64,000 bases of DNA from Candidatus Spyradenecus sp. (lineage in GTDB: Bacteria; Verrucomicrobiota; Verrucomicrobiia; Opitutales; UBA953), in assembly GCA_045535075.1 (NCBI GenBank), contig JAZSKX010000017.1, positions 160,001 to 224,000 of the forward strand. Reading direction: 5' to 3'. The translations under genes were made by a program, and so were the position numbers. The notes beneath the pieces are model-generated. The model saw nothing but the letters and a program-made list of their open reading frames with translations, was not told the origin of the DNA and searched no databases. This document shows positions 1-64,000 of the stretch, in pieces (positions within the stretch are counted from its first letter, which is position 1; every line of letters begins with the position of its first letter).

Positions 1-725
1 GAGCCCTTCTCGTTTTTGCTTTTGCGGGAACACTGCTGGCACAAATTCCGACAGTGCTTCACGTGTTTGCGCTTCCCCTGGCAGCTATGATCGGCGCTTT
101 ATTAATAACATTTTTGGTTCTTTCGCTCGCGGGAGCGATCGGAAGAAATCGCATCGGAGGAATGCTGCTCATCGGGATCGCAATTAATTCGGCTGTCGCC
201 GCATTCACCGGGCTGATTCTACATTTCTCGGCAGATAGCCAAATACGCACCTACACCTTCTGGATGCTCGGCGGATTAGATCGCGCGGAATGGAGCTTAA
301 TCGCCCCGGCGGCAACAATTATCGCAACGGGATTGATGATTCTCCCACGCTGTTCTCGAGGTTTAGACGTTCTTGCTTTAGGAGAATCCGAAGCGCATTT
401 TGCCGGAATTGACGTTACGCGCCTACGCCGCCATGTCGTTTGGGTGTCAGCGGCAATGGTCGGCTCCGCTGTCGCAATCGGCGGAATGATCGGCTTTGTC
501 GGCTTGGTCGCGCCGCATCTGATTCGGCTGACATTCGGGCCCTCGCATCGCTTCCTCGTTCCCGCGTCCGGATTGCTAGGCGGGATTTTACTGATTGCGG
601 CAGATATCGCGGCTCGTAGCTTAGGCGGGGCAACCGAGCTCCCGATCGGTGTCGTTACGGCAATTATCGGCGCGCCGTTTTTCTTAGGTGTTTTATTAAA
701 AGGCGAAAGGAGAATCGTAACATGA
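1..725 (+). CDS. FecCD/HmuU-family iron/heme ABC transporter permease (5' end probably outside the window)
   Basis: Hydrophobic ORF with LALGESEAHFAG, GMIGFVGLVAPH and ELPIGVVTAIIGAPFF motifs. Confidence 0.9.
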   Translation, partial: ALLVFAFAGTLLAQIPTVLHVFALPLAAMIGALLITFLVLSLAGAIGRNRIGGMLLIGIAINSAVAAFTGLILHFSADSQIRTYTFWMLGGLDRAEWSLIAPAATIIATGLMILPRCSRGLDVLALGESEAHFAGIDVTRLRRHVVWVSAAMVGSAVAIGGMIGFVGLVAPHLIRLTFGPSHRFLVPASGLLGGILLIAADIAARSLGGATELPIGVVTAIIGAPFFLGVLLKGERRIVT

Positions 726-1492
726 TTTTTTCGGCAAAAAATCTGATCGTCCGTCGTGGAGGAAATTGTATTCTCAATAATGTTTCCGCCGATGTTCCCA
801 CAGGAAAACTCTCGATTGTTCTCGGACAAAACGGCGCCGGAAAATCGACTCTGCTCCACGCGCTTGCCGGCGGAATAAAACCCGATTCCGGCGAAGTTTT
901 TTGCGGGAAAACTCCCCTGCGGGAACTTGATTCCCGGGAATTGGCGCGCCACCGCGCCGTGCTGACCCAATCGACGCAACCCGCATTTGATTTTACGGTT
1001 GAAGAAACTGTCTTACTCGGACGCACCCCTTGGATCGGAACCTCTGAAACCCGAAACGACAAAAACGTTGCCGCCAATGTTTTGCGAACCGTCGGATTGG
1101 AAAAATTTGCCGAACGGCGACTTTCCACATTATCCGGCGGCGAACTCCAGCGCGTTCAAATCGCACGAACATTCGCTCAAGGCATTACTCCGACGGGAAC
1201 GCCGACAACGTTTTTCCTCGATGAACCGCTTGCTGCTTTGGATTTCAAACATCGGTTTGAAATCATGCGCTGCCTGAAAGAGCTCGCTCAAGCCGGCAAC
1301 GCTGTTTTCGTTGTCCTACACGATTTGAATCTTTCGCTTCGTTTCGCAGATCGCGTGCTTGTCATGCAAGCGGGAAAAATCGCTCTCACGGGAACGCCGC
1401 TTGAGGTTTTAACGCCGGAAAATTTAGCTCGGATTTTTGAAATCCGAGCCGAAATTCTACGCGATTCCCGCGGTGCGTTTATCCGATTTTAA
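722..1492 (+). CDS. Heme/iron ABC transporter ATP-binding protein (HmuV-like)
   Basis: Walker [10 protein letters not shown], signature [15 protein letters not shown]-loop LHDLN; coupled to the permease. Confidence 0.9.
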
Positions 1493-2660
1493 CACTTTCT
1501 CGAAGCGCCTCAACGCGGTTGAGCTGCTCCCAAGGCAAATCGGATTTGGTAAAATGACCGTAATTGGTCGTATGTGCGTAAATCGGGCGTAACAAATCCA
1601 ATTGAGCAATAATGCTTGCCGGTTTGAATGAAAAAACCTTCTTTACCGCGGCAATAATTTTTTCGTCGCTAACCGTTCCCGTCCCGAACGTGTCGATGTG
1701 AATGCTCGTCGGCTCCGGCTCGCCGATTGCATAAGAAACCTGCAATTCGACGCGCTTCGCCAAGCCGGCTGCGACAATGTTTTTTGCGACCCAGCGGCAC
1801 ATGTAAGCCGCCGAGCGGTCAACTTTAGACGGATCTTTTCCGGAAAACGCACCGCCTCCATGGCGTCCGGCTCCGCCGTAAGTATCGACAATGATTTTGC
1901 GTCCCGTCAGCCCGGCATCGCCATGGGGTCCGCCGATAACGAATTTTCCCGTGGGATTGATGAAAAAATGCGTTTCCGAATCAACAAGCGTTTCGGGAAG
2001 CACGGAGCGAATCAACTTCTCGCCGAATGCGCGGATCGTCGCATGGTCAACGGCTTCCGTGTGCTGTGTCGAAAGCACAACATTTTCAATGTGCGCGGGA
2101 ACGCCGTTTTCATAGCGGACGGCAACTTGCGATTTGCAATCCGGACGCAACCAAGCCGACTCCGAAGCCGACTTGTCTTTGCGGATTTTTTCCAAAGCCT
2201 GCAAAATGCGATGAGCAAACATCACGGGAGCCGGCATCAATTCCGGAGTTTCATCCGTCGCAAAGCCGAACATAATTCCCTGGTCGCCCGCACCCTGCTC
2301 CGCAGAACTTTTGCCGGACGCAGCTGCCGCATCGACGCCTTGCGCAATGTCGGGCGATTGCGTTCCGATGAGATTTAAAATTTCAACCGTTCCGGCCTGA
2401 AAAATATCATCATCGCGTTCGTCGACATAGCCGATTTCCCGAATCGCAGCACGAGCAATCTCCTCGTAATTCACTTTCGCCAAAGTCGTAATTTCCCCGG
2501 CAAGCACCACCCGATTGTCTTTAACCAAAGTTTCGCACGCCACGCGGGAACGCGAATCCTGAGCCAAGCAAGCATCTAAAATGGAATCAGAAATTAAATC
2601 GGCGACTTTGTCCGGATGTCCGGCACCGACAGACTCGGAACTAAAAATGAAACTGCTCAT
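1479..2660 (-). CDS. metK: S-adenosylmethionine synthetase
   Basis: [17 protein letters not shown] and [16 protein letters not shown] motifs; start placed at MSSFIF. Confidence 0.97.
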
Positions 2661-2778
2661 AATCGAGCCGCCAAGTGTGCCTGAGGCGTTCCCGCAAATC
2701 AAGAATATATTTTCATATCAAGATTGATTGATATATTTAAACTTTAAAGGTACCCCTAAAATAAGTATACGGTTCTAC

Positions 2779-2816
2779 AAAAAAGCTCCCTCCGCGTTTA
2801 AACGAAGGGAGCTTTT
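2779..2816. terminator. Intrinsic terminator (AAAAGCTCCCT...AGGGAGCTTTT)
   Basis: 11-bp inverted repeat with A/T tails, downstream of the minus-strand pgi operon. Confidence 0.7.
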
Positions 2817-2828
2817 CAAAAAATAACA

Positions 2829-2993
2829 CTATCGGTCCTGCGGCATCATCCCGCCCATACCCGGCATTGTATTTTCCCAAGCTTGGGGAGCGCCGCTCGC
2901 CGGGAGATTGGAATCTTCCGGCGGAGGAGTCTCGGTGCACGCAACTAAAAGCGCAACGAGCGGAAGTAATGCAAACTTAACGACCGTTTTCAC
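2829..2993 (-). CDS. Small lipoprotein, 54 aa (below the ORF-track cutoff)
   Basis: Manual translation MKTVVKFALLPLVALLVACTETPPPEDSNLPASGAPQAWENTMPGMGGMMPQDR; signal peptide with lipobox LVAC; starts 5 bp after the upstream gene and is followed by a terminator. Confidence 0.75.
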   Translation of the reverse strand: MKTVVKFALLPLVALLVACTETPPPEDSNLPASGAPQAWENTMPGMGGMMPQDR

Positions 2994-2998
2994 GTAGA

Positions 2999-3940
2999 TT
3001 ATTTTTTGTTAACAAACGGAATCAAGTTCACTGCCGCGCCATTCGGAACGGCTCCCATTTCAGACTTCGGAAGGATACGTGCAATTGCATTTGCGGGCGA
3101 AGCTTCGGAAATCTGAATTTGTCCGACTTTAATTCCGTTGTACTCTACATCGTAATATCCGCCCTGCATGATGTAGGATTCTGCAGTTCCGACAGAAAGC
3201 ACGATCAAACCGCGGCGAACATCGATAGAGCTAACCGTAGTCTGAACATAGGGAGAAGCAAATTTAACGACCGGTCCGGTCAACGCATTGGTGACATAAA
3301 GAGCGGACGGATATTCTTCATCATCAAACGTCATACCTTTAGCACGCGCCAAGTGACGGAATTTCGTGTAACGATTCTGTCCTTTTTCCATCTTCTTTTG
3401 GAGGTCCGCGATTTCATCCAAAAGTGCATTGTACTCGTCGAGCGTTTTCATGTTGGCGATGCGTTCATTAAGGCGCGCCGTATTTTCCTTTTCGGAACGG
3501 AGCGTCGCTTCGGAAGCCGCCAACTTGGTTTCGAGATCGGCAACGTTGTCTTGAAGTTCGTTGCGTGCACGCGTCAATTCTGCGTTTTCGGCAACCTTCG
3601 CATCAATTTCGGACTTAAGTCCTTCAATCGTTGCATCACGCGCGGCAATCGTATTTTTCTGAGCAGCAATGGTCGCATCATCCTTAAGCTTCTGCTCACG
3701 ACGCCCTTCAATTTCTTTGCACGCGGGAGCGACGATTTCCATCGCCGCTTTCAAGTCTATGGGTTTAGAGAGCTTTTGATAATCGAACGGCTCACCGGAA
3801 GTTTTCGCAACCTGTGCAAGCGGTTTTGCTTTAGCAACGGCATTGTCCATTTCCCCTTTAATGAGGAAAAACAGCGCAATTGCGCCGGCGGAAAGCACGA
3901 TAGCGAGTGCGCGGAGAATGATAGAAACTTTGTTGTTCAT
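2999..3940 (-). CDS. Hypothetical membrane-anchored coiled-coil protein
   Basis: N-terminal TM segment, long heptad-rich helix, C-terminal beta-rich domain. Confidence 0.75.
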   Translation of the reverse strand: MNNKVSIILRALAIVLSAGAIALFFLIKGEMDNAVAKAKPLAQVAKTSGEPFDYQKLSKPIDLKAAMEIVAPACKEIEGRREQKLKDDATIAAQKNTIAARDATIEGLKSEIDAKVAENAELTRARNELQDNVADLETKLAASEATLRSEKENTARLNERIANMKTLDEYNALLDEIADLQKKMEKGQNRYTKFRHLARAKGMTFDDEEYPSALYVTNALTGPVVKFASPYVQTTVSSIDVRRGLIVLSVGTAESYIMQGGYYDVEYNGIKVGQIQISEASPANAIARILPKSEMGAVPNGAAVNLIPFVNKK

Positions 3941-3946
3941 GGGGTT

Positions 3947-5527
3947 TTATCGGTTATAATTGAAAGTTGAGCAGTAAGCCGGGGCTCGGGTTTGACGGGC
4001 AACCGCACAAGACGCGCTCGCCGCCAAGTGTTGACAGATTTTGAACACTAATTCCGTGCGGTTTTCAAGCTCTAATTTTTCGGCGATGGCTTCCGCAGAG
4101 AATTTTTCGGGAGCATTTGCCTTCAAAAATTCAACGATTTGAGTTTGAAGTTTTAAAATCCCCGCAGCGGCTTTTTTCCCGGCTTCGACGCCCGGCTGGT
4201 GGTAAGCGTTGATGCCGATAAACGTCGCATAAAAACCGACCGCACGTTCGAAGAGCGCAATCAGCGCGCCGATGCTTTGCGGCGTCACGTCTTCGACGGT
4301 CAGCGTTACCGAGGCGCGCCCTTTTTCGGTCAGAGCTTCGCGCGTGCCGAGGAGGAAGCCTTCAAGATAATCTCCGGCGGAAATTCCCGGATCAACTTCC
4401 GTGCTTTCACCTGCGCGATCCCGCAAAACTTCGATGAAAGTCGCGAAGAAATTCGGTACGCCTTCGCGCAATTGCTGAATATAGGCGTGCTGGTCGGTCG
4501 AACCCTTGTTCCCGTAAACGGAAATCCCTTGATTGACGACGTTCCCGGCGAGGTCTTTTTCCTTGCCGAGCGATTCCATTATCAGCTGCTGCAAATAGCG
4601 AGCAAAGAGCAAAAGGCGATCTTTGTAAGGCAAAATCACCATATCTTTCGCGCCTTTTCCGTCCGTCAGAAAATACCACGCGAGCGCGAGCAACGCCGCC
4701 GGATTCTCGAGCGCTTCGCGGGAACGCGTTTGCGCGTCCATCGCTGCCGCTCCCGCGAGCATTCCGCGAATATCCAAGCCCTGAAGTGCAGCCGGAAGCA
4801 AGCCGACCGCCGCCATTTCGCTGGTGCGCCCGCCGACCCAATCCCACATCGGGAACCGCTCAATAAAACCTTGTGCGAGAGCCGTTTTGTCGAGCTGGGA
4901 ACCAACTCCGGTAACGGCGACTGCGTGTTTTGCAAAATCCAATCCCGCCGCCTTGTATTGCGCGACGGTTTCAATCATCGCGTTGCGCGGTTCGGGCGTG
5001 CTTCCGGATTTCGACGTTACGACGCAAAGTGTTTCGCCGAGCTTTCCTTTGAGCTCGGCAAAAACGATGTCAAAACCGTCCGCATCCGTGTTATCGAGGA
5101 AGAAAACCTTCATTTTGTCGCGCCCGGGCATTCCGAGAGCAGAGGCGACGAATTGCGGTCCGAGCGCGCTCCCGCCGATGCCGATGCAGAGAAGATTTTT
5201 GAACGTTCCCGCGCTACCGGAAATTTCGCCGGAATGAACTTTGTTTGCAAAAACTTCGATTTTTTCGAGCGTTCCCGCGATTTCGGCGGCGAGCTCGGCT
5301 GTCGGCGCGAGTTGCGGAGCGCGCAGCCAATAATGCCCGACCATGCGGTTTTCGTCCGGATTGGCGATTGCGCCCTTTTCGAGTTCCGCCATTGCGTCAA
5401 ACGCCTTATCGAGCATCGGCTTTGCGGCGGCGATGTAATCCGTCGGGAACCCGACGCGGCTCAAGTCGATGGCGAAATTGAGCGCATCAAACGCGATGTA
5501 GTTTTTCTTAAAGTTTTCCCAGCTCAT
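3947..5527 (-). CDS. pgi: Glucose-6-phosphate isomerase
   Basis: [29 protein letters not shown] and HQPGVEAGK motifs. Confidence 0.97.
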
Positions 5528-5543
5528 TACTCAAAAAAATACT

Positions 5544-5921
5544 TTATTTTGCAGGGGGATTTTCCGTCGGGGCGGATTCCTGCGCCGGCGTTGCGGGAAC
5601 GTCTTCCGTCACCAACGCGGCAGGAGCCGTCTGCGCCGTTTCCATTTTCAGAGCTTCCGCCGTATCATTGCGAGAATCCTTTGCGATAAAACCAAAGTAA
5701 AGCACAGCACAAAGAATGAAAAACAGCGTAATAAAAATAACGGTTGCCTTGGAAAGTACGCCTGCCGCTTCTCCGCCGAAGACGCTTTCGGAAGTTGCCC
5801 CGCCGAGCGCGGAACCCATTCCCGCATTGGCGCTCGGACGTTGCATCAAAACGAAGAGCACGACGAGCACGCAAACAAAAAACAGCACGAGGGCAGCACT
5901 AAAAAGTAAAATATTAAACAT
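5544..5921 (-). CDS. secG: Preprotein translocase subunit SecG
   Basis: Two TM helices flanking LMQRPS..GMGSALGG..SVFG. Confidence 0.9.
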   Translation of the reverse strand: MFNILLFSAALVLFFVCVLVVLFVLMQRPSANAGMGSALGGATSESVFGGEAAGVLSKATVIFITLFFILCAVLYFGFIAKDSRNDTAEALKMETAQTAPAALVTEDVPATPAQESAPTENPPAK

Positions 5922-5992
5922 AAGGTTTTGTGATTAAATTAAAACGAAGCCTCAATCTCAAACAAATTTTCGGACTTGAAGCGTTCCCGGAA

Positions 5993-6556
5993 CTAGCGAC
6001 TCCGGAGCAATTCCGGATATTTCAGAAAAACTTCGCCGAGGGCGGCAATCATAATTGAGTGATGAATCGCTCCGCCGCGCGCCAGTTCAAGCAATTCCGC
6101 AGGTGAAACTTCCCGCACGAGAATTTCTTCGTTTTCGTCCAAAGACGTTCCCGCGATTTTCTTACAATTTTTAATAAGAATGATGCTACAGAAATTATTA
6201 AAAATCGCCGGATTCGCAGAAAGTTTCCCCAACAAAATCGGCGGATCGCCTGCGTAGCCCGTCTCTTCGAGGAGTTCCCGCGGACCGGCAGCAAGCGGAT
6301 CTTCGCCCGCTTCAACAACACCACCCGGAAACTCCCAAGACAAATCGCGTACGCCGTAACGATACTGTTGCTCGACCAGAAAGTTTCCGGATTCCGTCAC
6401 GCAAACGCAAGTAACCCAAGCCGGAGCGTGCGCAACAAAGAAATCGCCTTCTCTCCCGTCTTGCGGGTGGCGATTTCTTTCACGAAAAACTCTGAAAACC
6501 TTACAGTCCGCCCAAAGCTCTTCTTCGGAAACTTCCCAACGGGACGGCGTTTTCAT
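5993..6556 (-). CDS. NUDIX hydrolase (ADP-ribose pyrophosphatase-like)
   Basis: Nudix box GGVVEAGEDPLAAGPRELLEETGY. Confidence 0.9.
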   Translation of the reverse strand: MKTPSRWEVSEEELWADCKVFRVFRERNRHPQDGREGDFFVAHAPAWVTCVCVTESGNFLVEQQYRYGVRDLSWEFPGGVVEAGEDPLAAGPRELLEETGYAGDPPILLGKLSANPAIFNNFCSIILIKNCKKIAGTSLDENEEILVREVSPAELLELARGGAIHHSIMIAALGEVFLKYPELLRSR

Positions 6557-6565
6557 GAAAACAAA

Positions 6566-7135
6566 TTATTTCGCGGGAACCTTGATTTTCTGACCGACGC
6601 GCAAACGCGCCGGCTCAATATCCGGATTCAATTCCTGAATATCCACAACCTTGCAACCGAGCTTGTTGGCAATTTTATAGAAATTGTCACCGGGCTGAAT
6701 CGTGTATTCGCCGCCCGCGTTTGATGCCGCAGAAGAAGAGGAAGCATCAGAAGTCGGGCGCGAAACCGGGCGGGAACCGTTCACGCGGTTGTTAATCGCG
6801 ACAAGCGTGTCTTCGAGCGATTTGTCCTTTTGATCAAGCGCTTCGAATTTTCTCGCGAGTTCTTCCCGCAAAAGACCGATTTCCTGACGGAGCGCTTCAA
6901 CATCTTTGGCGCTTTCTCCGCCGAAACCCTGTTCTGCGGCAGCCTTGTTGACAGTCGCATGAATTTCCTCGATGTCGGAATCGACCTTTGTCGTGAAACG
7001 ATCGACCTTTCCGCGAACAACAAACGCGATAATCAGCGCAAGCCCGCCGATGATAATTCCCAAAATTCCGATTCCGATCGGAATTTTCAAATCTGCGGGA
7101 GCGTCAAAACCGGAGTCAATTGAAGAATCTTCCAT
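6566..7135 (-). CDS. Membrane-anchored LysM-domain protein
   Basis: N-terminal TM, coiled coil, C-terminal YTIQPGDNFYKIA...LRVGQKIKVP LysM domain. Confidence 0.88.
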   Translation of the reverse strand: MEDSSIDSGFDAPADLKIPIGIGILGIIIGGLALIIAFVVRGKVDRFTTKVDSDIEEIHATVNKAAAEQGFGGESAKDVEALRQEIGLLREELARKFEALDQKDKSLEDTLVAINNRVNGSRPVSRPTSDASSSSAASNAGGEYTIQPGDNFYKIANKLGCKVVDIQELNPDIEPARLRVGQKIKVPAK

Positions 7136-7192
7136 AGTATTTTTGTTTAAGTGAAATTGTTTTTAACTGCTTTCTCGTGATGGAATATTTTG

Positions 7193-7222
7193 TTGACATC
7201 GAGGGCAATAAAAAACGATTCT
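7193..7222 (+). promoter_or_regulatory. Putative sigma70 promoter of tRNA-Pro
   Basis: Perfect TTGACA at 7193-7198, about 40 bp upstream of the tRNA; -10 element degenerate. Confidence 0.45.
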
Positions 7223-7235
7223 TAGCCGATATTTT

Positions 7236-7313
7236 CGGGCGTTAGCGCAGTCTGGCTAGCGCATCTGCTTTGGGAGCAGAGGGTCGGGGGTTCGAATCCC
7301 TCACGCCCGACCA
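7236..7313 (+). tRNA. tRNA-Pro (TGG)
   Basis: Acceptor stem CGGGCGT/ACGCCCG, anticodon stem TCTGC/GCAGA with loop TTTGGGA, T-loop GTTCGAATC, 3' CCA. Confidence 0.95.
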
Positions 7314-7587
7314 AAAACCCTCTTTCAAATCACTTAAAAATCCGGAGAAATAAGGAAATTGCGAGTTTTCTTATCCTTTCGCAATCTCTCAAATCTGCCG
7401 GAAAATGCTCAACAACGCCTGTTTCCGACAAAAGAATTTACGTACATTTTTTAGGCGTGTTTTCAAACCCTTTAATTCGATTAAAAGGCGGCAAAAACAT
7501 CCCTTCCCGGACCGTTCCCGCCGTTCTTAAGGAAAATCCTCGCGTTCCCGCCGGGAACAATTAGCATTTTCGCCATTCCCTCTCGCC

Positions 7588-10136: not shown

Positions 10137-10153
10137 AACGAATACATTTTTTC

Positions 10154-12184: not shown

Positions 12185-12200
12185 TTCTTCCGCTCAAATA

Positions 12201-12246
12201 AAAAACAGTTCCCGTAGCGTAATACCACGGGAACTGTTTTTTTTTT
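12201..12246. terminator. Bidirectional terminator between ftsH and hisH, built from inverted GTTCCCG/CGGGAAC motifs
   Basis: AAAAACAGTTCCCGT...ACGGGAACTGTTTTT perfect inverted repeat between convergent genes. Confidence 0.85.
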
Positions 12247-12259
12247 AGACTTTAACTAT

Positions 12260-12886: not shown

Positions 12887-12902
12887 CGTAACTTAAGGGA
12901 AA

Positions 12903-13502: not shown

Positions 13503-13519
13503 TTTAAGTATTTCTTATT

Positions 13520-15350: not shown

Positions 15351-15359
15351 GAAAAACAT

Positions 15360-48716: not shown

Positions 48717-48789
48717 TTTTGCGCGAGGCGGAACGGAAGCCACGCAACTTTTGATTCGGGAGCGAGTTTAGGATAAACTCGTTCTCGCA

Positions 48790-49365: not shown

Positions 49366-49368
49366 AAA

Positions 49369-49848: not shown

Positions 49849-49877
49849 TGATTTTCACAACGAACAACTAAAAAAAT

Positions 49878-50201: not shown

Positions 50202-50202
50202 A

Positions 50203-50783: not shown

Positions 50784-50789
50784 CAAAAG

Positions 50790-52337: not shown

Positions 52338-52362
52338 CTTTTAACTTTTTGGAGATCAATAA

Positions 52363-55258: not shown

Positions 55259-55549
55259 TACTGATAGCTTCCATGCCGTGCCGACCTTGTATGCGGATGC
55301 GGCGAATCAGAACAGCCCGAGCGCCCGATTGCCGCGCACTTCGGCTATATTTCCGAAGCGGACATTTGCATACGCATGGAGCAGATGACGGGTAATCCGT
55401 TTGCGCTTTCGTCGCAAAGCGAATACGCGAAAGCCGTTGCCGAATATTGCGAGAAAAACGGCATTAAGATTCACGAGCGGCGAATTATTTACAATTTGGA
55501 CGGGTCTCGCGTTGACGGCGAGAACCCGCCGAAACCTATTGAATGCTAA
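55242..55549 (+). pseudogene. Chimeric scar: fibre-gene 5' fragment joined to a second glycosyltransferase 3' fragment
   Basis: 55242 MKFYIDTDSFHAVPTLYADA resembles the fibre start MKIYIDTNTFPASPALYADA; another frame reads IAAHFGYIS (compare GT FAAHYGYIT) to the stop at 55549. Confidence 0.75.
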
Positions 55550-55553
55550 TCCA

Positions 55554-58139
55554 ATGAAAATCTATATCGACACTAACACATTTCCCGCGTCGCCCGCGCT
55601 TTACGCGGACGCGGAAAAAACGAAGCCGTTACCGCGCATCATCCCCCTTGTGCAAGGCTTTCGCGGCGAAATCGAGGTTTGTTTTCTCGGCGAGCTTGCG
55701 CCGAAGACCGGCGACGGCTTAACGCTTGCCATGCGCCCGTATGGCACTGGCGCTGATGTCGTGCGAACGGAAACCGTTGCAGTTGTTGCCGGCGCGGAAG
55801 CCGGCGTAGCCGCAAGCGCCAAAGTCAGCCTCGCCGTAAACACGGACGCCCTGCAGGCGGCAATCGGCACACGCGAAACGCTGAACGTGCTTTGCGGCGT
55901 TATCGTGACTGACGACGCGGCGGCATTCCCGACGCGGATGGAATGGCAAATCGTATTTGCTGTTGCGGCTTCGGCGCTTCCTAATGGCGTTCCCGCGCCG
56001 GAAATCTCGCCAAGCGCAGTTGATGTGCTACGCGACGAAATCAACGCCGTCAAAACCGACCTTGCGAAAAATTACGTCAACCGAAATTCGTCGCAGGATG
56101 TTGCCGGCGTTAAATCGTTTTTGCAGGGGATTAACATCGGCAGCTCGGCAAATCCGTTTGGGGTTCCGGAATGGCGAATCGCAAGCGGCGGAATCACTTA
56201 CTTCGGCGGCGGCATGTCGATGCCCGGCAACACGAAAATTTTGCCGCAAGGCGTGTCGTCGGATGTTGTTAGTGCTCGTGCCGTAAAAGGATTAACGTCC
56301 TCGGCGGGCGAGATTCTAATCCCGGCAAAAACGGGAACGTTTGCGCTCGTTAGCGACGTGGAAAGCGCCGTCGGAAAAGCGCTCACGTCTGCCTACAAAT
56401 ACGCCGGGCAAGTGCCGACGGAGGCGGATTTGCCCGAAAGCGCAGAAAACGGCGACGTTTATGATGTTGCCGACACCGGAAAGAATTACGCTTACGACGC
56501 GAAACTCGGGCGCTGGGATGCTCTCGGAGGGACGATAAATTACGCAACAGTAGCCGAGGTGCAGGCATTGCAGTCAGCCGTCGAAGCCAAGGCGAACGAC
56601 GCGGACGTGGTGCACAGGAGCGGGAATGAGACGATTAATGGAGAAAAGAGATTTACAGCAGATATTATTGTTGACGAAGGTTATTTTCTTAAGTCTCGCT
56701 TGGGTAGGTTGTTAATTGGAAGTGAAACATCAGGGGAGAGATTTGCATCTCTTGACCACCTTTCCGTTCTCCCCCTCGGAACGACTACCGCTCTTGGCGC
56801 TCCTGCCTACGGCTTGCACGTTTCCGCGATTGGCGGCTTGCAACTGTTTGGGACGCACTTCCTGAACGGAGACATTTGGACGGACGATTCCGTTAAAATG
56901 GTAAAGAGCAATGTCTCCCTTTACTCGACCGACAAGGCTTCAATCGGATTTGACTACGCTAACGAAGTAGTTTTCCGCACGATGCCGAACGACGGCACGG
57001 AGGCAACGTACAAGCTTGAGGCGTGGAAATGGGACGATGATTCGCATTCGTCGAAATCAGCGAGCGCGGGAGTTAGGTTCCTCAAGCCGTCACAGAAAAG
57101 CGCGCTTGAGGCAACGTCTGTGTTGAACATGCAGGAAGGGGACGCACGGTGGTGGCGAGCCGGAAGTAGCTCTATTCCGATTAAACCTTCCGGGCAAAGC
57201 TCGCCCGCAGCTATATTTCTTAGTACGTATTATTCCGGTGAAAGTTTTGAGCTTTCTTTTGCAGGTCTTGAAAAAGACGGAGACGGTTACCCAGACGTCA
57301 CTTTTAAGTTCCCTTTCACGGGTGGGCAGATTGCGCTGAAATCGGACATTCCTAACATGTCGTTTGTTGACGGCGTGTTTGTTATGCGCGACAGTGTTTC
57401 GTTGAACAATAATACAGACATTGGCAATGCCGGCATTTTGTATGGGTTCGACTTCACGTATCAATATCGTTTCCCCGAGAAAACCGGCACGGTCGCGCTG
57501 TTGGACGACATCGTTCTTGGCTCGGGCGCGTCGGGGGTTAGTCCAGCCGGAGCTACAACAGGGAGCAACGTCGCCATAGGTCCGGAAGCTAAATCGCACG
57601 GTGGTGGGACAGGGTCGGAGACGGTCGCCATTGGCGCTCGGTCGAGTGCTACCGGAATGTGCTCAACAGCACTCGGGCGAGATACTATTGCGAGCAACTG
57701 TCTGGCCGTTGCGTTGGGAGCCACTGCAAACGCGACGGGCAATCAGTCAATCGCGATTGGCTGTTTTGCGATGGCAAGCGCATATAACACCATTGCGACT
57801 GGCGAAAATGCAACCGCAAGCGAAGGTGGAGCTGTCGCGATTGGTAGCAATGCGAGCGCGACAAATACAAACTCCCTCGCGATTGGACCCAACGTGAAGT
57901 GCTTCTTGGCGAAGAGCTTTCTTATTGGCGCGAAAAACGACATTTCACTTGAAGGAAACAAGCTTTGTATTGGCGCAATCAATGATGACAATCCGGGATT
58001 CTTGTTTGTGGAGCAGGATGCGAACGCCACCATCACGGGCGTCCGCATTTCCAAAGAGAACTTCATGGCAATGCTCAAGCAGTTCGGCGGTGAGGATTTC
58101 ACAGCGACGAAACCTGCGGAGGAACAAGCAACGGAATAA
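55554..58139 (+). CDS. Tail fibre/receptor-binding protein with YadA-like head repeats
   Basis: 861 aa; VHRSGNETING.KRF fibre motifs; three P.KTGT.AL..D.-type repeats; about 14-residue AIG..A.A repeats near the C-terminus. Confidence 0.82.
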   Translation: MKIYIDTNTFPASPALYADAEKTKPLPRIIPLVQGFRGEIEVCFLGELAPKTGDGLTLAMRPYGTGADVVRTETVAVVAGAEAGVAASAKVSLAVNTDALQAAIGTRETLNVLCGVIVTDDAAAFPTRMEWQIVFAVAASALPNGVPAPEISPSAVDVLRDEINAVKTDLAKNYVNRNSSQDVAGVKSFLQGINIGSSANPFGVPEWRIASGGITYFGGGMSMPGNTKILPQGVSSDVVSARAVKGLTSSAGEILIPAKTGTFALVSDVESAVGKALTSAYKYAGQVPTEADLPESAENGDVYDVADTGKNYAYDAKLGRWDALGGTINYATVAEVQALQSAVEAKANDADVVHRSGNETINGEKRFTADIIVDEGYFLKSRLGRLLIGSETSGERFASLDHLSVLPLGTTTALGAPAYGLHVSAIGGLQLFGTHFLNGDIWTDDSVKMVKSNVSLYSTDKASIGFDYANEVVFRTMPNDGTEATYKLEAWKWDDDSHSSKSASAGVRFLKPSQKSALEATSVLNMQEGDARWWRAGSSSIPIKPSGQSSPAAIFLSTYYSGESFELSFAGLEKDGDGYPDVTFKFPFTGGQIALKSDIPNMSFVDGVFVMRDSVSLNNNTDIGNAGILYGFDFTYQYRFPEKTGTVALLDDIVLGSGASGVSPAGATTGSNVAIGPEAKSHGGGTGSETVAIGARSSATGMCSTALGRDTIASNCLAVALGATANATGNQSIAIGCFAMASAYNTIATGENATASEGGAVAIGSNASATNTNSLAIGPNVKCFLAKSFLIGAKNDISLEGNKLCIGAINDDNPGFLFVEQDANATITGVRISKENFMAMLKQFGGEDFTATKPAEEQATE

Positions 58140-58237
58140 CAGATAGAGGAGAAGCTTTATGTCGGAAATCAATGTTTTGACAGCGCACGCAACGTCGTGC
58201 GTGAAGCAGACAAAAAACGTAACAGGAGAAAGAAATA

Positions 58238-58612
58238 ATGAAACAACTTATTCAAATAAACGAAGGCAATGAGGCCCCGGCGGAATTTTTAGCCGAAGTG
58301 CGGAATGGGGTCGTCCTCTCGCTTACGATTGCAGAGGATGCGACTCAAGAAGAGCGTCCCGTTACAATCGAACATGGGAATGAAGCCGGGGAATCGGTTT
58401 TGGTTTGGACTTGGCGGGAGACTCACGTCGATGACATCAGGGTTGTTGAATACGGGGCGTTGGTAACACTTTTGATTCGCTTGAAATACTCAGCAGACGC
58501 GGTCGAAGCAGCACATTGCAATGCGGCGGCGGGGCAAAATGCAGATATTGACGAAATCAATGCGTGGCGTGCCAAAGTCAAAGCGTTTGCCCGGACGATT
58601 TTCCCTGCTTGA
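58238..58612 (+). CDS. Putative tail fibre assembly chaperone
   Basis: LIRLKYSADAVEA..INAWRAKVK; follows the fibre gene. Confidence 0.55.
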   Translation: MKQLIQINEGNEAPAEFLAEVRNGVVLSLTIAEDATQEERPVTIEHGNEAGESVLVWTWRETHVDDIRVVEYGALVTLLIRLKYSADAVEAAHCNAAAGQNADIDEINAWRAKVKAFARTIFPA

Positions 58613-58644
58613 CTTGGGAGCATAATCGAGCGACACCAGTGGGC

Positions 58645-59469
58645 ATGATAGACAACACAATCACTTTGCCGTGCTTTCCGTATCCTGGCGGAAAAACAAA
58701 GATGCGTGAACGCCTTGTAGCGATGTTCCCGACACACAAAACCTATGTTGAGCCGTTTGCGGGAGCCTTGGCCGTTTTACTCGGGAAACCGCGTGTGAAA
58801 TGTGAGGTTGTCAACGATCTTAATGAAGAGCTCGTGATGTTTTTCCGCTATGTGCGGTTGCATGGAGATGCGCTTCTTGCGGAGATTGACGCTGTTCTCG
58901 CCGCTCGCCGGGAGTTTGAGTTTTTCCGCTCCCGTGAGCCGGATACGGAACTTGGCAAAGCCTTAGCGTTTTTCTTTCGACAAATGCTTTCATTTGGCGG
59001 AATTGGCGAGTCGTTTTCGCGGCGCAAGGATAAAGCGCCTCATTGGGGAAGCAACGTGATTAAGCAACGCATTCTTGCAGTCCGAGAACGGTTGCGCCGT
59101 GTCTATATTGAATGCAAGCCGGCAAACGAGGTGATCGCATTCTACGATACTCCGGAAACGTTCTTTTTCGTGGATCCTCCGTACATTTGTGCTACCCCAG
59201 CTCGCTATAAGGCCTTTACGCCGGAGCAGATGCAAAGCTTGAGGGATACGCTTTCCCTATGTAAGGGAGCGTGGATGCTGACTTGCGACAATTCTGCTAC
59301 CTGTCGTGAGATCTTTTCCGGTTTTAGGACGACCGAGATGTCGACCCTGTATTCGCTCGCGAATGCTGCCCCGAAGCTGGTTTCCGAGCTTGTTGTTTTT
59401 TCTAAAAATTTCCCTATTCAGAATGAAACCTGTTTTCCCGTATCCGGGCGGCAAATCGAAGCTGCTTAA
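58645..59469 (+). CDS. DNA adenine methyltransferase (D12 class), copy 1
   Basis: YPGGK, YVEPFAG, EVVND and DPPY motifs. Confidence 0.92.
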   Translation: MIDNTITLPCFPYPGGKTKMRERLVAMFPTHKTYVEPFAGALAVLLGKPRVKCEVVNDLNEELVMFFRYVRLHGDALLAEIDAVLAARREFEFFRSREPDTELGKALAFFFRQMLSFGGIGESFSRRKDKAPHWGSNVIKQRILAVRERLRRVYIECKPANEVIAFYDTPETFFFVDPPYICATPARYKAFTPEQMQSLRDTLSLCKGAWMLTCDNSATCREIFSGFRTTEMSTLYSLANAAPKLVSELVVFSKNFPIQNETCFPVSGRQIEAA

Positions 59470-60268
59470 ATCCATTCTTCCGTTTATCCCGTGCGCGGAA
59501 ATCCGAACCTATATTGAGCCGTTTGCGGGCGGGCTTGCCGTGCTTTTGGCTCACGAAGAGCCATTTCCTCGGGAAGTCGTCAATGATGCGAATGCAGGGC
59601 TGATGGCGTTTTATCGAATGGCCGCATTGCATCCGGACGCGCTTCTTACGGAGCTTTCTGCCGTGATCGCGGCACGGCGGGATTTTGAAATGGAAGTACG
59701 CTTTCCGGATTCGAGGACAGAACTTGGACGTGCTGCTCGGTGGTACTGGATGACGAAGCAGAGCTTTGGCGCACAGGGAGAGCATTTTGGTCGCGGGAAA
59801 GATGAATTTCATGGCGTGGACCTCGAAAAAGACGCTCCGGTAATTCGTCGGCTTTCTGAGCGTCTGAAATCGACAATTTTTCGGAATACGGATGCGTGTG
59901 AGGTCATTCGGGAGTTCGATGCCCCGGACACGTTCTTTTTTCTCGATCCTCCGTATATCGAATGCGGCGACACTGCCTACGATGCGTTCACAGAAGATGA
60001 CATGAATCGTCTTCGCGAGACGCTTGTGTCGAGCAAAGGAAAATGGCTTTTGACCTGTGACGATTCTCCGGCAACGCGCCGTGTTTTCTCCGGATTTCGC
60101 GTGCGTGAGAATCTGATTAGGTACTCTCTCGCCAAAACCAAATCCGGGAAAATTTCCGGGGAGTTAATGGTTTTTTCGGAGAATCTCGCTACCGATTTTC
60201 TTGGCAAAACTTCGAGGCTGTTTCCTCTCTCACGCACCTCGAAAGTAGCTACCGCGCAAACCGCATAA
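59423..60268 (+). CDS. DNA adenine methyltransferase (D12 class), copy 2
   Basis: YPGGK, YIEPFAGG, EVVND and DPPY motifs. Confidence 0.92.
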   Translation: MKPVFPYPGGKSKLLKSILPFIPCAEIRTYIEPFAGGLAVLLAHEEPFPREVVNDANAGLMAFYRMAALHPDALLTELSAVIAARRDFEMEVRFPDSRTELGRAARWYWMTKQSFGAQGEHFGRGKDEFHGVDLEKDAPVIRRLSERLKSTIFRNTDACEVIREFDAPDTFFFLDPPYIECGDTAYDAFTEDDMNRLRETLVSSKGKWLLTCDDSPATRRVFSGFRVRENLIRYSLAKTKSGKISGELMVFSENLATDFLGKTSRLFPLSRTSKVATAQTA

Positions 60269-60348
60269 AAGGGCGTGCAATTTCACTGCACACCCTCTGC
60301 AAAAACTCCGCATCGGCGTTGCTTTTTCAGCTTTTTTTGGGGGGGGGT

Positions 60349-60397
60349 ATTTCTCAAACCTCTGCGACAAATTTCTCAAACCAGCCGAGCATTTACA
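60349..60397 (-). repeat. Right-end transposase-binding repeats R2 (60349-60360) and R1 (60371-60382), with terminal CA
   Basis: ATTTCTCAAACC twice, 22 bp apart, inverted relative to the left-end sites. Confidence 0.88.
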
Positions 60398-61508
60398 CCG
60401 TTGAAAGTTCCTTCCCGCATTTAGAACAAATCGTTTGAAGCTTGTTTCCACAGTTCGGACAGAATTTAGATTTCGCGGGAACAGGAGCGTTACATTTCGG
60501 ACAAAACGTATTTTCTGATCGAGGCGTCTCATTTATAAAAGCACTCCCGCAGTTTGAGCAAAACTTTGTCCCTGTCGGGTTTTGTGCCCCGCACTTCGCA
60601 CAAGCAAGCGTTGATGCCGAGAAATTCATCGGATTTCCTATTTGTGTCGCACCAGCCCCCATCGCTGTTCCCAACCCGGCGCCGAGTGCGATCCCCATTC
60701 CGGCCCCCATGAGATTTGCGGACATTCCGCCCGCACCTTCATTCCCCGCCGCAACCTGTAATGTATCGAAGGAACGCATTTGCCGATAGTCGTAGCCGAC
60801 GATATCCATTTCTGCTCGCTGGGCGAGTGCATCTCGAAGTTTTATGACGGCGGGGTCTTCTTCGTCTGTCGAAATTGATGCAATGGCGAAGCGGCTCAAA
60901 CCTACACCGAATTCATCAAAAACTTCTGCCAGTTTTTGCGAAACTGCGTCAGCCAGTTCCGATTGGTGAGCAACAATATCTAGCACTGAAACGCTTTTCT
61001 GAGCGATGTATTGACCAATCAGAGTTTTCACTTCCATAACCAACATTCCTCGAAAGTGCTCGCTCAATGTTGATTTGGTAAATGCCGGAAGCGTTCCCGC
61101 AAACTTTGTCAGAAACTTTCGAGAATTTTTAATCGTCATCCCGTACTGCCCGAACGCGCGAACGGGAATCATGATTTTGTAAAGCGGATCCCGCACTTGA
61201 ATCGCAGTCGGAGTTCCCCACTTCAAATCCAATGCATAAGCTTTTTGAACAAAATAAACTTCTGCTCGGAACGGACTCTTCCCGCCTGCAAACTGTGCAT
61301 TTACAAATTTCTCAAGAAAAGGAAAATTTTCGGTATTGAGTGTGTATGTTCCTGCCGAAAACGGTCCCTCGAAGCGCCCCCCAATTTGAACGAGTGCTTC
61401 TTGGGATTCTGCAACAATAAGGCGACTTAATGTCGTAAAATCTGTTTCCGGAAAACGACATGCAATAACGTTGGGCGCAAAACGCCACGAAATAACTTCA
61501 ACAGCCAT
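60393..61508 (-). CDS. SPFH/Band-7 protein with C-terminal zinc ribbons, truncated by the prophage
   Basis: LIVAESQEA, GTYTLNTEN.P, LKWGT, VRAFGQY and repeated CxxC; the stop codon is supplied by the prophage end (GTG TAA). Confidence 0.9.
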   Translation of the reverse strand: MAVEVISWRFAPNVIACRFPETDFTTLSRLIVAESQEALVQIGGRFEGPFSAGTYTLNTENFPFLEKFVNAQFAGGKSPFRAEVYFVQKAYALDLKWGTPTAIQVRDPLYKIMIPVRAFGQYGMTIKNSRKFLTKFAGTLPAFTKSTLSEHFRGMLVMEVKTLIGQYIAQKSVSVLDIVAHQSELADAVSQKLAEVFDEFGVGLSRFAIASISTDEEDPAVIKLRDALAQRAEMDIVGYDYRQMRSFDTLQVAAGNEGAGGMSANLMGAGMGIALGAGLGTAMGAGATQIGNPMNFSASTLACAKCGAQNPTGTKFCSNCGSAFINETPRSENTFCPKCNAPVPAKSKFCPNCGNKLQTICSKCGKELSTV

Positions 61509-61607
61509 ACTGGATTCTCTTGAATTGTTAATGAGATTTGTCAGTTTACCAATACACTAACTTTTTGACGGTGTCTAAAGTTCGAAAAACACCGCATAAT
61601 TGACGGT

Positions 61608-61844
61608 GTGAAACCGTTTTCCGTGTCTGAAAGATTAAAAGCATTGCGTGCTGCGTCGGGGCTGACGCAGGAAGCTTTTGCCGAGCTCGCGGGAATGGAC
61701 TACAAAACATATCAGCACATCGAAGCCGGTCGGCGACCGAGTGTCCGCCTGTGCACTATCGAAAAAATCTGTGCAGCTTACCGCATCGAGCTTTGGCAAT
61801 TTTTCTCGCCGAATATTCCCAAATTGAATTTCGGAAAAGCGTAG
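61608..61844 (+). CDS. XRE-family HTH regulator
   Basis: LKALR..GLTQEAFAE...IEAGRR; divergent from the SPFH operon. Confidence 0.88.
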   Translation: MKPFSVSERLKALRAASGLTQEAFAELAGMDYKTYQHIEAGRRPSVRLCTIEKICAAYRIELWQFFSPNIPKLNFGKA

Positions 61845-61993
61845 CTGATTACGGGAACGTCGGGAAAGTTTGCTTCTTTGGATGGTACGATTTTGCATTC
61901 GAGTTTATTCGTGTTGATTCGTGGTCTACGTTTGTGATTTCGATTAGGATTTTGCGTTTTGTTGGCGGATGTGCTTCATTCTCGGGATAATTT

Positions 61994-63352
61994 ATGGACG
62001 AAACATCCACCATAACTGCGTTTGCGACTCCGCTTGGCGAATCGGCTGTTGCCGTCATTCGTGTGAGTGGTCCGAATTCGCATAAAATTGCAAAAGAAGC
62101 TTTTGTTCCGAAAAACGGACTTAAGGCTCGTTATGCTACATTCGGCGTTTATAAATCCGTTTCCGGCAGTGCACTAGACGAGTGTTTGTATGTTATTTTT
62201 AATGACAAATCGTCTTATACGGGAGAGGATTCTTTAGAGATTTATTGTCACGGGAACCCGTTTATTGCGAAGAAAATATTTTCGGATTTGATTGTGCGCG
62301 GATGCCGGCAGGCGCTTCCGGGGGAATTTACGCGCCGTGCCTTTTTAAACGGGAAAATGGATTTAACGCAGGCGGAGGCGGTTGCGGACGTGATTTCCGC
62401 TCGTTCGGAGATTGCGCTGAATGCGGCTCAGAAGTTGCTTTCGGGAACTCTGGGGAAAAAAATTTCGGATTGGAATGAAAAGATTGTCCGCCTACTTGCG
62501 GAGATTGAATCCCAGATTGATTTTTCAGACGAAGAGGTTCCCGAGCTTAATCGCGATGATTTTAACCCAAAACTTATCGAAATTATAAATGAGTTAAAAA
62601 GCACGGAGAATACGGCGCGTTATTCGTCTGCGGTTCACGAAGGTGTTAATGTCGTTATATTCGGTCCTCCGAATGCGGGAAAGTCTTCCCTGCTCAATGT
62701 GCTTGTCGGCGAAGAGCGTGCGCTTGTCAGTGAAGAAGCGGGAACGACGCGGGATTTCATTTCGGAAAATATTAATATCGGTTCCTATCGTATCCGTATT
62801 TTGGATACAGCAGGGATACGGGAGCATGCTGCATCAAAGATTGAGGCTGCGGGCATTCAACGCTCGATTGAGTGTATGAAAAAGGCTGATTTTTATATCT
62901 TTGTTGTTGATGTTTCTGCGGGAACGCCGAAGCTTGGCGACGAGGTGAAATCTTTGATTCGCCCGGAAAATACCTTAGTTGTTTTGAATAAAAGCGATCT
63001 TGGTTTTGGATTGAATCCGGATATGTTCCTGCCGGAATTTGAAAAAATTACAGTCTCGCTTTTAAAACCGGATGCATATGACGTGCTCTCGGGCAAGATT
63101 CAAAATGTTTTGAAAGCGAAGGAGATTGTTCCTCGCGACGATGTTTTAATCGTCGGAATACGCCACGCAGAGGCGCTTTCCCGGGCGCGCGGGTATTTGG
63201 AAGAAGCACTTCGTGACTTAGGCATTGTTCCCTTGGAATTCACGGCAAATAACTTGAGAAGTTCGATGAATGAGCTTTCGGAAATCCTCGGACGATTTGA
63301 TAACGAGAAGATTTTAGACAAGGTATTTTCAGCCTTTTGTATCGGTAAATAA
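61994..63352 (+). CDS. mnmE: tRNA modification GTPase MnmE
   Basis: GPPNAGKSS, GTTRD, DTAG, NKSD and C-terminal FCIGK. Confidence 0.97.
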   Translation: MDETSTITAFATPLGESAVAVIRVSGPNSHKIAKEAFVPKNGLKARYATFGVYKSVSGSALDECLYVIFNDKSSYTGEDSLEIYCHGNPFIAKKIFSDLIVRGCRQALPGEFTRRAFLNGKMDLTQAEAVADVISARSEIALNAAQKLLSGTLGKKISDWNEKIVRLLAEIESQIDFSDEEVPELNRDDFNPKLIEIINELKSTENTARYSSAVHEGVNVVIFGPPNAGKSSLLNVLVGEERALVSEEAGTTRDFISENINIGSYRIRILDTAGIREHAASKIEAAGIQRSIECMKKADFYIFVVDVSAGTPKLGDEVKSLIRPENTLVVLNKSDLGFGLNPDMFLPEFEKITVSLLKPDAYDVLSGKIQNVLKAKEIVPRDDVLIVGIRHAEALSRARGYLEEALRDLGIVPLEFTANNLRSSMNELSEILGRFDNEKILDKVFSAFCIGK

Positions 63353-63353
63353 T

Positions 63354-64000
63354 ATGAAAAAAGAAATTCGCATTGATAAAACGCGTCCTTACGATGTCAT
63401 TGTCGTCGGAGCCGGACATGCCGGTGTGGAAGCGGCCTTGGCGGCGGCGCGCATGGGTGCCGACACGTTACTTCTGACGGGAAATCTCGATACGATTGCT
63501 AAAATGAGCTGTAATCCCGCAATCGGAGGTCAGGCAAAAGGACATATTGTCCGGGAAATCGATGCGATGGGCGGCGAAATGGGCGTTTGTGCCGATGCGA
63601 CGGCGATTCAATTTCGTGTCTTAAATGCTTCAAAAGGCCCGGCGGTTCAGTCGCCGCGCGCGCAGTGTGATAAATTGGTTTACGCAGCCCGAATGAAGCA
63701 GACTTGTGAGCTGCAAAAGAATTTGACGCTTTTTCAGGCAATTGCATCCAAGCTTATTTTAAAAGCCGGGAAAGTGATTGGTGTGGATACTACTTTGGGA
63801 GTTCCGTTTTACGGGAAGACGGTTGTCCTGACTACGGGAACGTTCTTAAAAGGAAAGATGTTTATCGGAAAAAACGTCAACGACGGCGGGCGCCTCGGTG
63901 ATTTCAATGCAGAGACGCTTTCCGATAGTTTTCGCGATTTGGGAATGCAGGTCGAGCGTTTGAAAACGGGAACGCCGGCGCGAATTTTGGGTTCAACGAT
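63354..64000 (+). CDS. mnmG: tRNA uridine-5-carboxymethylaminomethyl modification enzyme MnmG/GidA (runs off the window)
   Basis: Manual translation YDVIVVGAGHAGVEAA, MSCNPAIGG, SKGPAV and LKTGTP. Confidence 0.96.
   Translation, partial: MKKEIRIDKTRPYDVIVVGAGHAGVEAALAAARMGADTLLLTGNLDTIAKMSCNPAIGGQAKGHIVREIDAMGGEMGVCADATAIQFRVLNASKGPAVQSPRAQCDKLVYAARMKQTCELQKNLTLFQAIASKLILKAGKVIGVDTTLGVPFYGKTVVLTTGTFLKGKMFIGKNVNDGGRLGDFNAETLSDSFRDLGMQVERLKTGTPARILGST

Follow-up and report, generated by a model that had tools for sequence, protein, structure and literature searches.

The window and its genes

The window analysed in this study is a 64,000-nt stretch of a Candidatus Spyradenecus genome (G000 below; 1.949 Mb in 18 contigs, 52% G+C), lying within contig C16, and the subject is a short, asymmetric (non-palindromic) word that recurs on both of its strands. 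In its 7-nt form the word, CGGGAAC or GTTCCCG, occurs 124 times in the window (69 copies on the plus strand and 55 on the minus strand). One hundred dinucleotide-preserving shuffles of the window gave a mean of 12.53 copies (standard deviation, sd, 3.53; maximum 21), and none of them reached 124, which bears out the enrichment on both strands claimed in an initial annotation of this DNA. The regions and features concerned are given below, the regional expectations being taken from 200 local dinucleotide shuffles per region.

1..23600, unstranded: host core DNA; 87 copies against 5.1 in shuffles, 3.7 per kb
12201..12246, unstranded: predicted bidirectional intrinsic terminator between ftsH (plus strand) and hisH (minus strand); stem GTTCCCG (12208) and CGGGAAC (12228), with A-run and T-run flanks
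15312..15350, unstranded: predicted terminator hairpin 3' of dnaN (minus strand); stem GCGTTCCCG ... CGGGAACGC, arms at 15319 and 15334
16891..16897, plus strand: example of a coding copy, GCG GGA ACG (Ala-Gly-Thr) in argS
19667..19697, minus strand: predicted terminator hairpin 3' of rpsR (minus strand); single word-bearing arm at 19673-19679
23601..27950, unstranded: AT-rich island, 43% G+C; 1 copy against 0.6, the chance level
27951..60300, unstranded: Mu-like prophage; 26 copies against 6.3 (sd 2.6), 0.8 per kb
60301..64000, unstranded: host DNA with a gene for an SPFH/zinc-ribbon protein and mnmE; 10 copies against 0.6, 2.7 per kb

The genes of the first host region include a btuC-like gene, a heme ABC ATPase gene, metK, pgi, secG, lpxB, tilS, ftsH, hisH, hisB, hpt, lepB, dnaN, argS, menB and rpsR (S18 confirmed), among others. 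The word positions listed in the initial annotation were correct to within 1 base. Its description of the first 2.7 kb as dense held, although nine copies lie there and not eight (the one at 558 had been missed), and 13 copies were counted at 4.5-6.8 kb, where roughly 14 had been proposed. Of the three genes said to have a copy upstream, argS (16803-16809, 27 nt) and rpsR (19929-19935) do, while the copy assigned to metK sits at the 5' edge of the gene (2688-2694).

The AT-rich island, from which the word had been described as nearly absent, contains eight minus-strand open reading frames (ORFs) with no family match but DUF805, and an ORF with an FRG domain lies directly upstream. Since the word is at chance level there, the island is probably recently acquired DNA. 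The prophage, for which an intermediate level of roughly two dozen copies had been correctly proposed, encodes Gam (28570-29097), a MuB-like AAA ATPase (29260-30336), a probable transposase of 669 aa that matched no Pfam family (30303-32312), a terminase (43647-45017), a Mu portal (45062-46564), gp36 and tail genes. It further carries an ADP-ribosyltransferase-domain ORF (46561-48024) and a gene for a tail fibre containing YadA-head repeats (55401-58139), as well as a pair of overlapping ORFs for D12 adenine methyltransferases (58564-60268), perhaps a single gene with a frameshift. No relatives of its Mu portal were found among viral contigs. The cumulative GC-skew minimum of C16 (~190 kb) falls at about 30 kb of the window, inside the prophage and between dnaN and mnmE (window 15360-16484 and 61994-63352). 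The region of the replication origin probably lies within the window, with the Mu-like element inserted into it.

Across G000, 16 of 380 windows of 5 kb (80 kb in all) hold five copies or fewer. These comprise two Mu-like prophages, restriction-modification (R-M) and defence islands, a large helicase gene, unannotated ORFs, and rpoB with ribosomal-protein operons. Among the word-poor stretches (G000:C8:25001-35000, C9:60001-65000, C12:45001-50000 and C12:75001-80000) were found the second Mu-like element (Gam, AAA ATPase), Hachiman HamA and a helicase adjoining a type I restriction subunit, a 5-methylcytosine (m5C) methyltransferase with NgoBV-like and HpaII-like nucleases and an AAA_15 ATPase, and a type I R-M system with an Abi gene. 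The word is scarce in recently acquired DNA, and the depletion in foreign DNA first noted by eye in the window extends to both prophages and to the defence islands.

Abundance and consensus of the word

Genome-wide, CGGGAAC is the most frequent 7-mer of G000, with 6528 copies (3169 and 3359 per strand). The most frequent 8-mer is CGGGAACG, with 5159 copies (2527 and 2632 on the two assembly strands), or about one per 300-400 bp, and the most frequent 9-mer is GCGGGAACG, with 3244. Markov models of orders 0, 1, 2 and 3 predict 69, 183, 268 and 587 copies of CGGGAACG, respectively, and these expectations are themselves raised by the word, which inflates the counts of its own sub-words.

A logo built from the 6528 genomic copies has information only from position -3 to position +8 (11 positions), with an extended consensus of y-y-R-CGGGAAC-G-c in which the flanking y-y-R and G-c are weak, and the commonest 12-mer around the word has merely 317 copies. 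Because the logo ends at these positions and no 12-mer is common, the word is short and does not belong to a longer repeat. One-letter variants of CGGGAACG, 24 in all, occur at 0.4-6.4 times expectation (transition variants at 1.0-6.4 times), and the exact word is therefore singled out.

Coding context, strand and spacing

Genes were modelled with a greedy ORF caller, which gave 1417 genes covering 85% of the genome, and at least one copy of the word was found in 1243 of them. The word occupies all six frames, encoding AGT, xGN and RER in sense and VPA, RSR and xFP in antisense; the four peptides read from the window at first (AGT, RER, VPA and RSR) are thus seen genome-wide. The density is 3.25 copies per kb in genes and 3.9 per kb between them (1133 intergenic copies).

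Codon usage does not account for these numbers. When synonymous codons are shuffled within genes, 530 sense and 349 antisense copies remain, whereas 3256 and 2141 were observed, a 6.1-fold excess on both strands, and shuffling codon order leaves 194 and 174. The word, for which coding tolerance had been claimed earlier, stands far above these codon-aware nulls. Ala-Gly-Thr is spelled GCG GGA ACG in 966 of 1174 tripeptides, where 83 would be expected. The two most over-represented tripeptides of the proteome are VPA (5.0-fold) and AGT (4.9-fold), and their reversed forms, APV and TGA, show no enrichment. CGGGAACG is a double-stranded, DNA-level word without a codon origin.

In 79 windows of 20 kb with clear skew, 2295 copies of CGGGAACG lie on the G-rich strand and 1870 on the other. 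This 55:45 split arises because a sense-strand preference combines with gene orientation, and it agrees with the initial annotation in amounting to no real strand bias, as in known uptake sequences. The most strand-skewed frequent 8-mer of G000 is another word, GCAGGGCG, which lies 139:18 on the G-rich strand and is a candidate of the Chi type or of the FtsK-orienting polar sequence (KOPS) type.

Gaps between copies follow an exponential distribution (mean 295 nt; median 208 against 205 expected; coefficient of variation, CV, 1.09), except that gaps of at most 50 nt are under-represented and 28 exceed 2 kb, where 7 would be expected. The density per 5 kb is near Poisson (mean 16.9, variance 23).

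Predicted terminators built from the word

Inverted pairs of the form GTTCCCG-N0-20-CGGGAAC number 213 in G000; their start-to-start distances peak at 19, and no such short-range peak was found genome-wide for the opposite arrangement (CGGGAAC, then GTTCCCG). Of these pairs, 163 are intergenic; 64 lie between convergent genes and six between divergent genes, against a background of 172 convergent and 187 divergent spacers. Their flanks are T-rich on the right in 120 cases, A-rich on the left in 110 and both in 75, and a pair lies within 120 nt of the 3' end in 178 of the 1417 genes.

The two inverted pairs and the single arm first pointed out in the window proved to be strong predicted hairpins with A- or T-run flanks and z values of -4 to -9. 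The hairpin at 12201..12246 folds at -22.9 and -30.7 kcal/mol (z -5.3 and -9.1), that at 15312..15350 has z values of -4.7 and -5.8, and that at 19667..19697 folds on the minus strand at -23.2 kcal/mol (z -4.0) and is followed by a U-run. Judged from pairing, folding and gene context, the word has been recruited to form the stems of about 160-210 predicted intrinsic terminators.

Distribution, maintenance and decay within the genus

All 19 genomes of the genus are enriched (552-7777 copies of CGGGAACG against 74-159 for a reversed-word control). In four sister genera, by contrast, not one of 62 genomes shows enrichment, the counts staying within 383 copies and within 2.4 times the control. A further 240 genomes of the order, from 41 families, hold at most 0.18 copies per kb. 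The conservation in relatives that had been put forward as a check was thus found, together with restriction to one lineage, and the conservation extends to silent sites. The G+C content of word-bearing loci ranges over 49-65%, and sheep, goat and other gut metagenomes (nine studies) hold contigs near-identical to the window. The word is a genome-wide signal of one genus of uncultured animal-gut Opitutales (Verrucomicrobiota). As a separate observation, seven genomes of family f17 (G096, G129, G153, G211, G244, G274 and G300) and one of f39 (G281) show a mild excess of CGGGAACG over the reversed control, up to 9-fold yet at no more than 0.18 per kb, which could be compositional or a faint related signal.

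The word is maintained in 15 species and low in four, which form two lineages, G001/G002/G013 and G014. The first three have four-fold fewer copies and yet are the closest to G000 (93% identity in ArgS, 81% at the nucleotide level), while the more distant G018 and G004 (86% in ArgS, 76% nucleotide) are dense, as are the most distant G008 and G009. In argS some word sites are common to most species and others are lineage-specific. The copy at 16891..16897 (alignment column 55) is kept in eight of nine aligned in-genus sequences, and three motif-free outgroups have AAV, AAQ and AGN there; several gains in argS altered the protein (such as ATA to AGT, AGA to AGT and RAL to REL).

For a comparison of sites, 20 kb of the window were aligned to five genomes, and 67 word sites were aligned in all six. 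Nineteen of these are unique to G000, 17 occur in G000 and the outgroups but have been lost in all three low-density genomes, five are present in all six genomes and one was lost in G000 alone. G000 keeps 12 of the 13 sites common to the low clade and the outgroups, whereas G001 keeps eight of the 29 common to G000 and the outgroups; the decayed copies differ between G001, G002 and G013. Third-codon-position identity inside the G000 copies is 91/121 (75%) against G018 and 84/113 (74%) against G004, compared with 51% outside, while against the closer low-density genomes it is 55-59% inside the word and 58% outside. Silent sites inside the word are actively preserved in the high-density species. 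New copies in G000 align without insertions or deletions to sequences one to three letters off in relatives, and the gains cover all substitution types at all positions, synonymous and non-synonymous alike.

In a maximum-likelihood tree of the single gene product ArgS, rooted on three motif-free outgroups, the low-density clade is sister to G000, and G014 stands beside the dense G008 and G009 on a long, uncertain branch. These placements in a one-gene tree suggest that the word has decayed twice independently within the genus.

Several further candidates and signals were followed. A CGGGTACG 'dialect' in sister genus g14, hinted at by a 100-kb sample, was rejected when its genome-wide counts equalled the reversed control. 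A new dialect in the low-density genomes was likewise rejected: the top genuine words in 240 kb of G001/G002/G013 are still CGGGAACG and GCGGGAA, and G014 retains a 3-fold remnant of the word at most. No hyper-abundant words were found in four sister-genus genomes (57-100 kb sampled in each), their top z being 10-22 against 66 in an equal sample of G000. The low-clade sample (L042-L046) also contains a local repeat rich in AGATTAAAG/CTTTAATCT, with 50 occurrences and top-ranked in G013 alone, which is probably a tandem or CRISPR-like (clustered regularly interspaced short palindromic repeat) array. Within-species variation was sought in public contigs, where none of 40 listed variant places (among 429) fell in a copy of the word, where about 0.9 would be expected, so this comparison is powerless with regard to polymorphism. 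Import of new copies together with divergent flanks was set aside, flank identity being at background (0.79 against 0.80), a comparison of little power at 80% identity.

Competence genes and candidate readers

The inventory of machinery was made in G000, which encodes ComEC (DUF4131 and Competence domains) and DprA. One pilus cluster holds PilB, PilT, PilB and PilC together and a second holds PilM, two ORFs without a known family and a TPR-secretin, and there are seven prepilin-like ORFs, four of which share an operon. The competence machinery proposed as a check is in this way largely present, as a retractile type IV pilus set with ComEC and DprA, but ComEA stayed below the cut-off and no ComP_DUS domain was found. 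The HHH_3/ComEA-type matches below the cut-off were to a Tex-like 787-aa ORF, an integrase, UvrC-like ORFs and a 1334-aa ORF.

The genes compared in the low-density genomes were those for ComEC, PilT, DprA, RecC, the pilins labelled C16 and C2, and four minor pilins, with the secretin, PilB, PilC, PilM and a 141-aa pilin left out. The compared genes are all present, although pilin C2 contains a single in-frame TGA in G014 and, in G002, is divided between contig ends. It was also observed that ComEC (L121-L126; G000, G002, G001, G013, G004 and G014) evolves very fast, at 63-64% identity to the closest relatives against 93% for ArgS and 97% for PilT, with a slight excess of changes on the G000 branch (p ~0.04, uncorrected).

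Among other possible readers, C-5 methyltransferases (PF00145) occur in 10 of the 19 genus genomes with no relation to word density, being absent from the dense G018, G004, G009, G006, G017, G011, G005 and G012 and present in the low-density G014, G002 and G001. Vsr (PF03852) occurs in one of the 19 and is also unrelated to density. RecC is present and intact in all 19, with no difference between high- and low-density genomes.

What the word may be for

The reading preferred here, held tentatively and at somewhat less than an even chance, is that CGGGAACG is a DNA-uptake or self-recognition sequence with a putative receptor, comparable to the DNA uptake sequence (DUS) of Neisseriaceae and the uptake signal sequence (USS) of Pasteurellaceae. 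The pattern of gains and of conserved silent sites would reflect a fixation bias that favours the whole word, from which an uptake bias plus recombination may be inferred, this being the only known mechanism that would give such a bias. A competent cell would prefer to take up word-bearing DNA, which would then enter the chromosome by homologous recombination, a molecular drive of the DUS/USS type whose outcome would be 'safe sex' with conspecifics. Most of the machinery that this route would need appears to be encoded (two PilB, PilT, PilC, PilM, a secretin, seven prepilin-like proteins, ComEC and DprA). The putative receptor would not be ComP-like, and the driving force would have been relaxed in the two lineages where the word is decaying. 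The organism is uncultured.

The initial annotation had proposed the same interpretation and had named a codon explanation, a strong leading-strand bias and missing machinery as grounds for dropping it; none of the three was observed, and the sequence hallmarks that it relied on were confirmed. Several other results nevertheless weigh against an uptake signal. Spacing is exponential (CV 1.09), matched to no fragment size and not more even than random, and the density is about 3-5 times that of DUS (mean gap 295 nt against ~1150 nt). With the terminator pairs removed, the intergenic density falls to about 2.8 per kb and shows no excess over the coding density of 3.25. The prophage at 27951..60300, though 4-fold below host density, is still 4-fold above chance. 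No ComEA was found at the cut-off in G000, the ComP_DUS domain (PF16732) was unmatched there at E values up to 0.1, with no pilin-like ORF matched, and all seven pilin-like proteins are acidic (isoelectric point 4.1-5.9). In the low-density genomes, ComEC, PilT, DprA, RecC, pilin C16 and the four minor pilins are intact, and relative-rate tests gave no faster evolution of ComEC or the four minor pilins (unique changes in G001 and G000 were 46 and 67 for ComEC, against 219 and 203 for housekeeping genes). As the word has decayed while these genes remained intact and evolved at symmetric rates, the tested competence genes are so far not implicated.

An alternative of a broader kind is possible although somewhat unlikely: a genus-specific intracellular reader, whether DNA-binding or acting by word-directed conversion, may write and maintain the exact 8-mer every 300-400 bp across the genome, with the uptake machinery uninvolved. 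Such a reader would have been switched off twice in the genus, the competence, pilus and RecBCD genes staying intact. If true, this would be a mechanism of a new class by which sequences are maintained genome-wide, and it might be related to the upkeep of the cyanobacterial word HIP1.

In its DNA-binding form, which taken singly is unlikely, the word would be the binding site of a genus-specific intracellular factor, kept by selection on many weak sites, an idea also put forward for HIP1 before a link of that word to transformation was raised, and serving nucleoid organisation, replication or repair bookkeeping, or the marking of DNA as self. Silent-site conservation, the uniform near-Poisson density, exponential spacing and independence of orientation would all be expected of such a factor, and so would decay in two lineages without damage to competence genes and the failure to find an extracellular receptor candidate (the pilins being acidic and ComP_DUS missing). 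The conservation of HIP1 has moreover been read as selection for a chromosome-level role (PMC5861425, in the part of the text available). On the other hand, no candidate factor was identified, and no known nucleoid protein requires an exact 8-mer every 300-400 bp. The depletion in prophages and defence islands and the terminator pairs are equally expected under uptake and do not discriminate.

In its conversion form, which is quite improbable, word-directed repair or gene conversion (cf. very-short-patch repair) would turn near-matches into CGGGAACG, the abundance would be a neutral by-product, and the activity would have been switched off in the two low-density lineages. The Poisson-like placement fits this, as do the origin of new copies from sequences one to three letters off, without insertions or deletions and with flanks at background identity, the decay without loss of competence genes and the partial enrichment of the prophage. 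Repair of the Dcm/Vsr type is unsupported, since neither Vsr (1/19) nor C-5 methyltransferases (10/19) track density. The gains cover all substitution types at all positions, and no one-off variant is strongly depleted as deamination repair predicts, transitions standing at 1.0-6.4 times expectation. No repair system known to us recognises an asymmetric target of 8 bp and corrects every kind of mismatch in it.

A Chi-like RecBCD signal or an FtsK-orienting sequence that protects or orients the chromosome is very improbable. RecC is intact in all 19 genomes, a dense Chi would mark self against phage DNA, and the prophage and islands are word-poor; however, the lack of strand skew argues against such a role, the 55:45 orientation being explained by gene-strand preference (the excess over synonymous codons is 6.1-fold both in sense and in antisense), the separate 8-mer GCAGGGCG is strongly skewed, and RecC is the same in high- and low-density genomes. 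One copy per 300-400 bp also far exceeds known Chi densities. An artefact of base composition, of codon or dipeptide usage or of a longer dispersed repeat can be virtually dismissed, as copies are 6- to 17-fold fewer after shuffling of synonymous codons or of codon order, the logo spans 11 positions with a top 12-mer of only 317 copies, new copies align without insertions or deletions, and the word is present across 49-65% G+C and absent from sister genera of similar composition.

Significance

To our knowledge, sequence-specific DNA uptake has been established experimentally in two proteobacterial families only. A 2026 terminator survey of thousands of genomes still places uptake sequences in those two families alone, in the portion of its text available (PMC13020248). 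No paper was found, supplements aside, that links CGGGAAC or GTTCCCG to uptake, nor any description of the word, of uptake sequences or of natural transformation for Verrucomicrobia. Papers pairing 'DNA uptake sequence' with 'Verrucomicrobia' were, judged from listings, not on the subject, and those naming 'Spyradenecus' were, on the same basis, taxonomic or survey papers only.

If the uptake reading is true, uptake sequences extend to the Verrucomicrobiota and to uncultured gut bacteria, at a density above that of DUS. The genus offers a natural experiment without a match in Neisseria or Haemophilus, as the word is kept up in 15 species but is being lost in four, which belong to two lineages. 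Closest relatives differ four-fold in density, a contrast that puts the reader of the word within reach of comparative genomics and that, together with metagenomic population data, could separate drive, selection and biased repair. The word is also a strong signature of the host, by which phages and mobile DNA can be assigned to the genus, and a genetic system for these bacteria, should one be developed, would require it.

Comparison with known systems

Chi and KOPS are strongly strand-skewed chromosomal words. The word described here resembles them as an over-represented short word in a genome with RecBCD, but differs in its 55:45 orientation.

HIP1 of cyanobacteria (GCGATCGC) is palindromic, recognised by two orphan methyltransferases and phylum-wide. 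Its conservation within and between ORFs has been read as selection over biased repair (PMC5861425, in part), and a possible role in uptake recognition has lately been proposed for it (PMC13756078, in part). The two words are alike as hyper-abundant 8-mers, at times above one per gene, and the function of HIP1 has been open for decades; in contrast, the present word is asymmetric, confined to a single genus and of a density untracked by C-5 methyltransferases (PF00145).

The USS of Pasteurellaceae has a 9-nt core, AAGTGCGGT or ACAAGCGGT, with AT-rich flanks, and it reportedly shapes proteomes, a finding credited to Findlay and Redfield in 2009. It too is used in terminators (PMC13020248, in part). 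In common with USS, the word has a short core found in great excess on both strands, shapes peptides (here VPA and AGT, 5-fold) and serves in predicted terminators, and no receptor is known for either. It differs from USS in lacking an extended AT-rich flank, in its much higher density, in its phylum and in that no ComEA homologue was detected in G000.

The DUS of Neisseriaceae is 10-12 nt long with a GCCGTCTGAA core and eight dialects, its receptor is the minor pilin ComP, and its close inverted pairs form rho-independent terminators (PMC2397512 and PMC13020248, each in part); the average distance between copies is about 1150 nt (PMC2397512, in part). Compared with DUS, the word has a shorter core (7-8 nt), a 3-5 times higher density and exponential spacing; it belongs to the Verrucomicrobiota, where no ComP_DUS domain was found in G000, and no dialects were found in the four sister genera or the low-density clade. 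The likenesses are that both are non-palindromic, lineage-specific, repeated hundreds- to thousands-fold on both strands and inside genes, highly conserved at permissive positions and arranged in inverted pairs as predicted terminators. By this comparison, the sequence properties of the word appear to match those published for DUS and USS (PMC2397512 and PMC13020248, as far as the available parts of these papers go).

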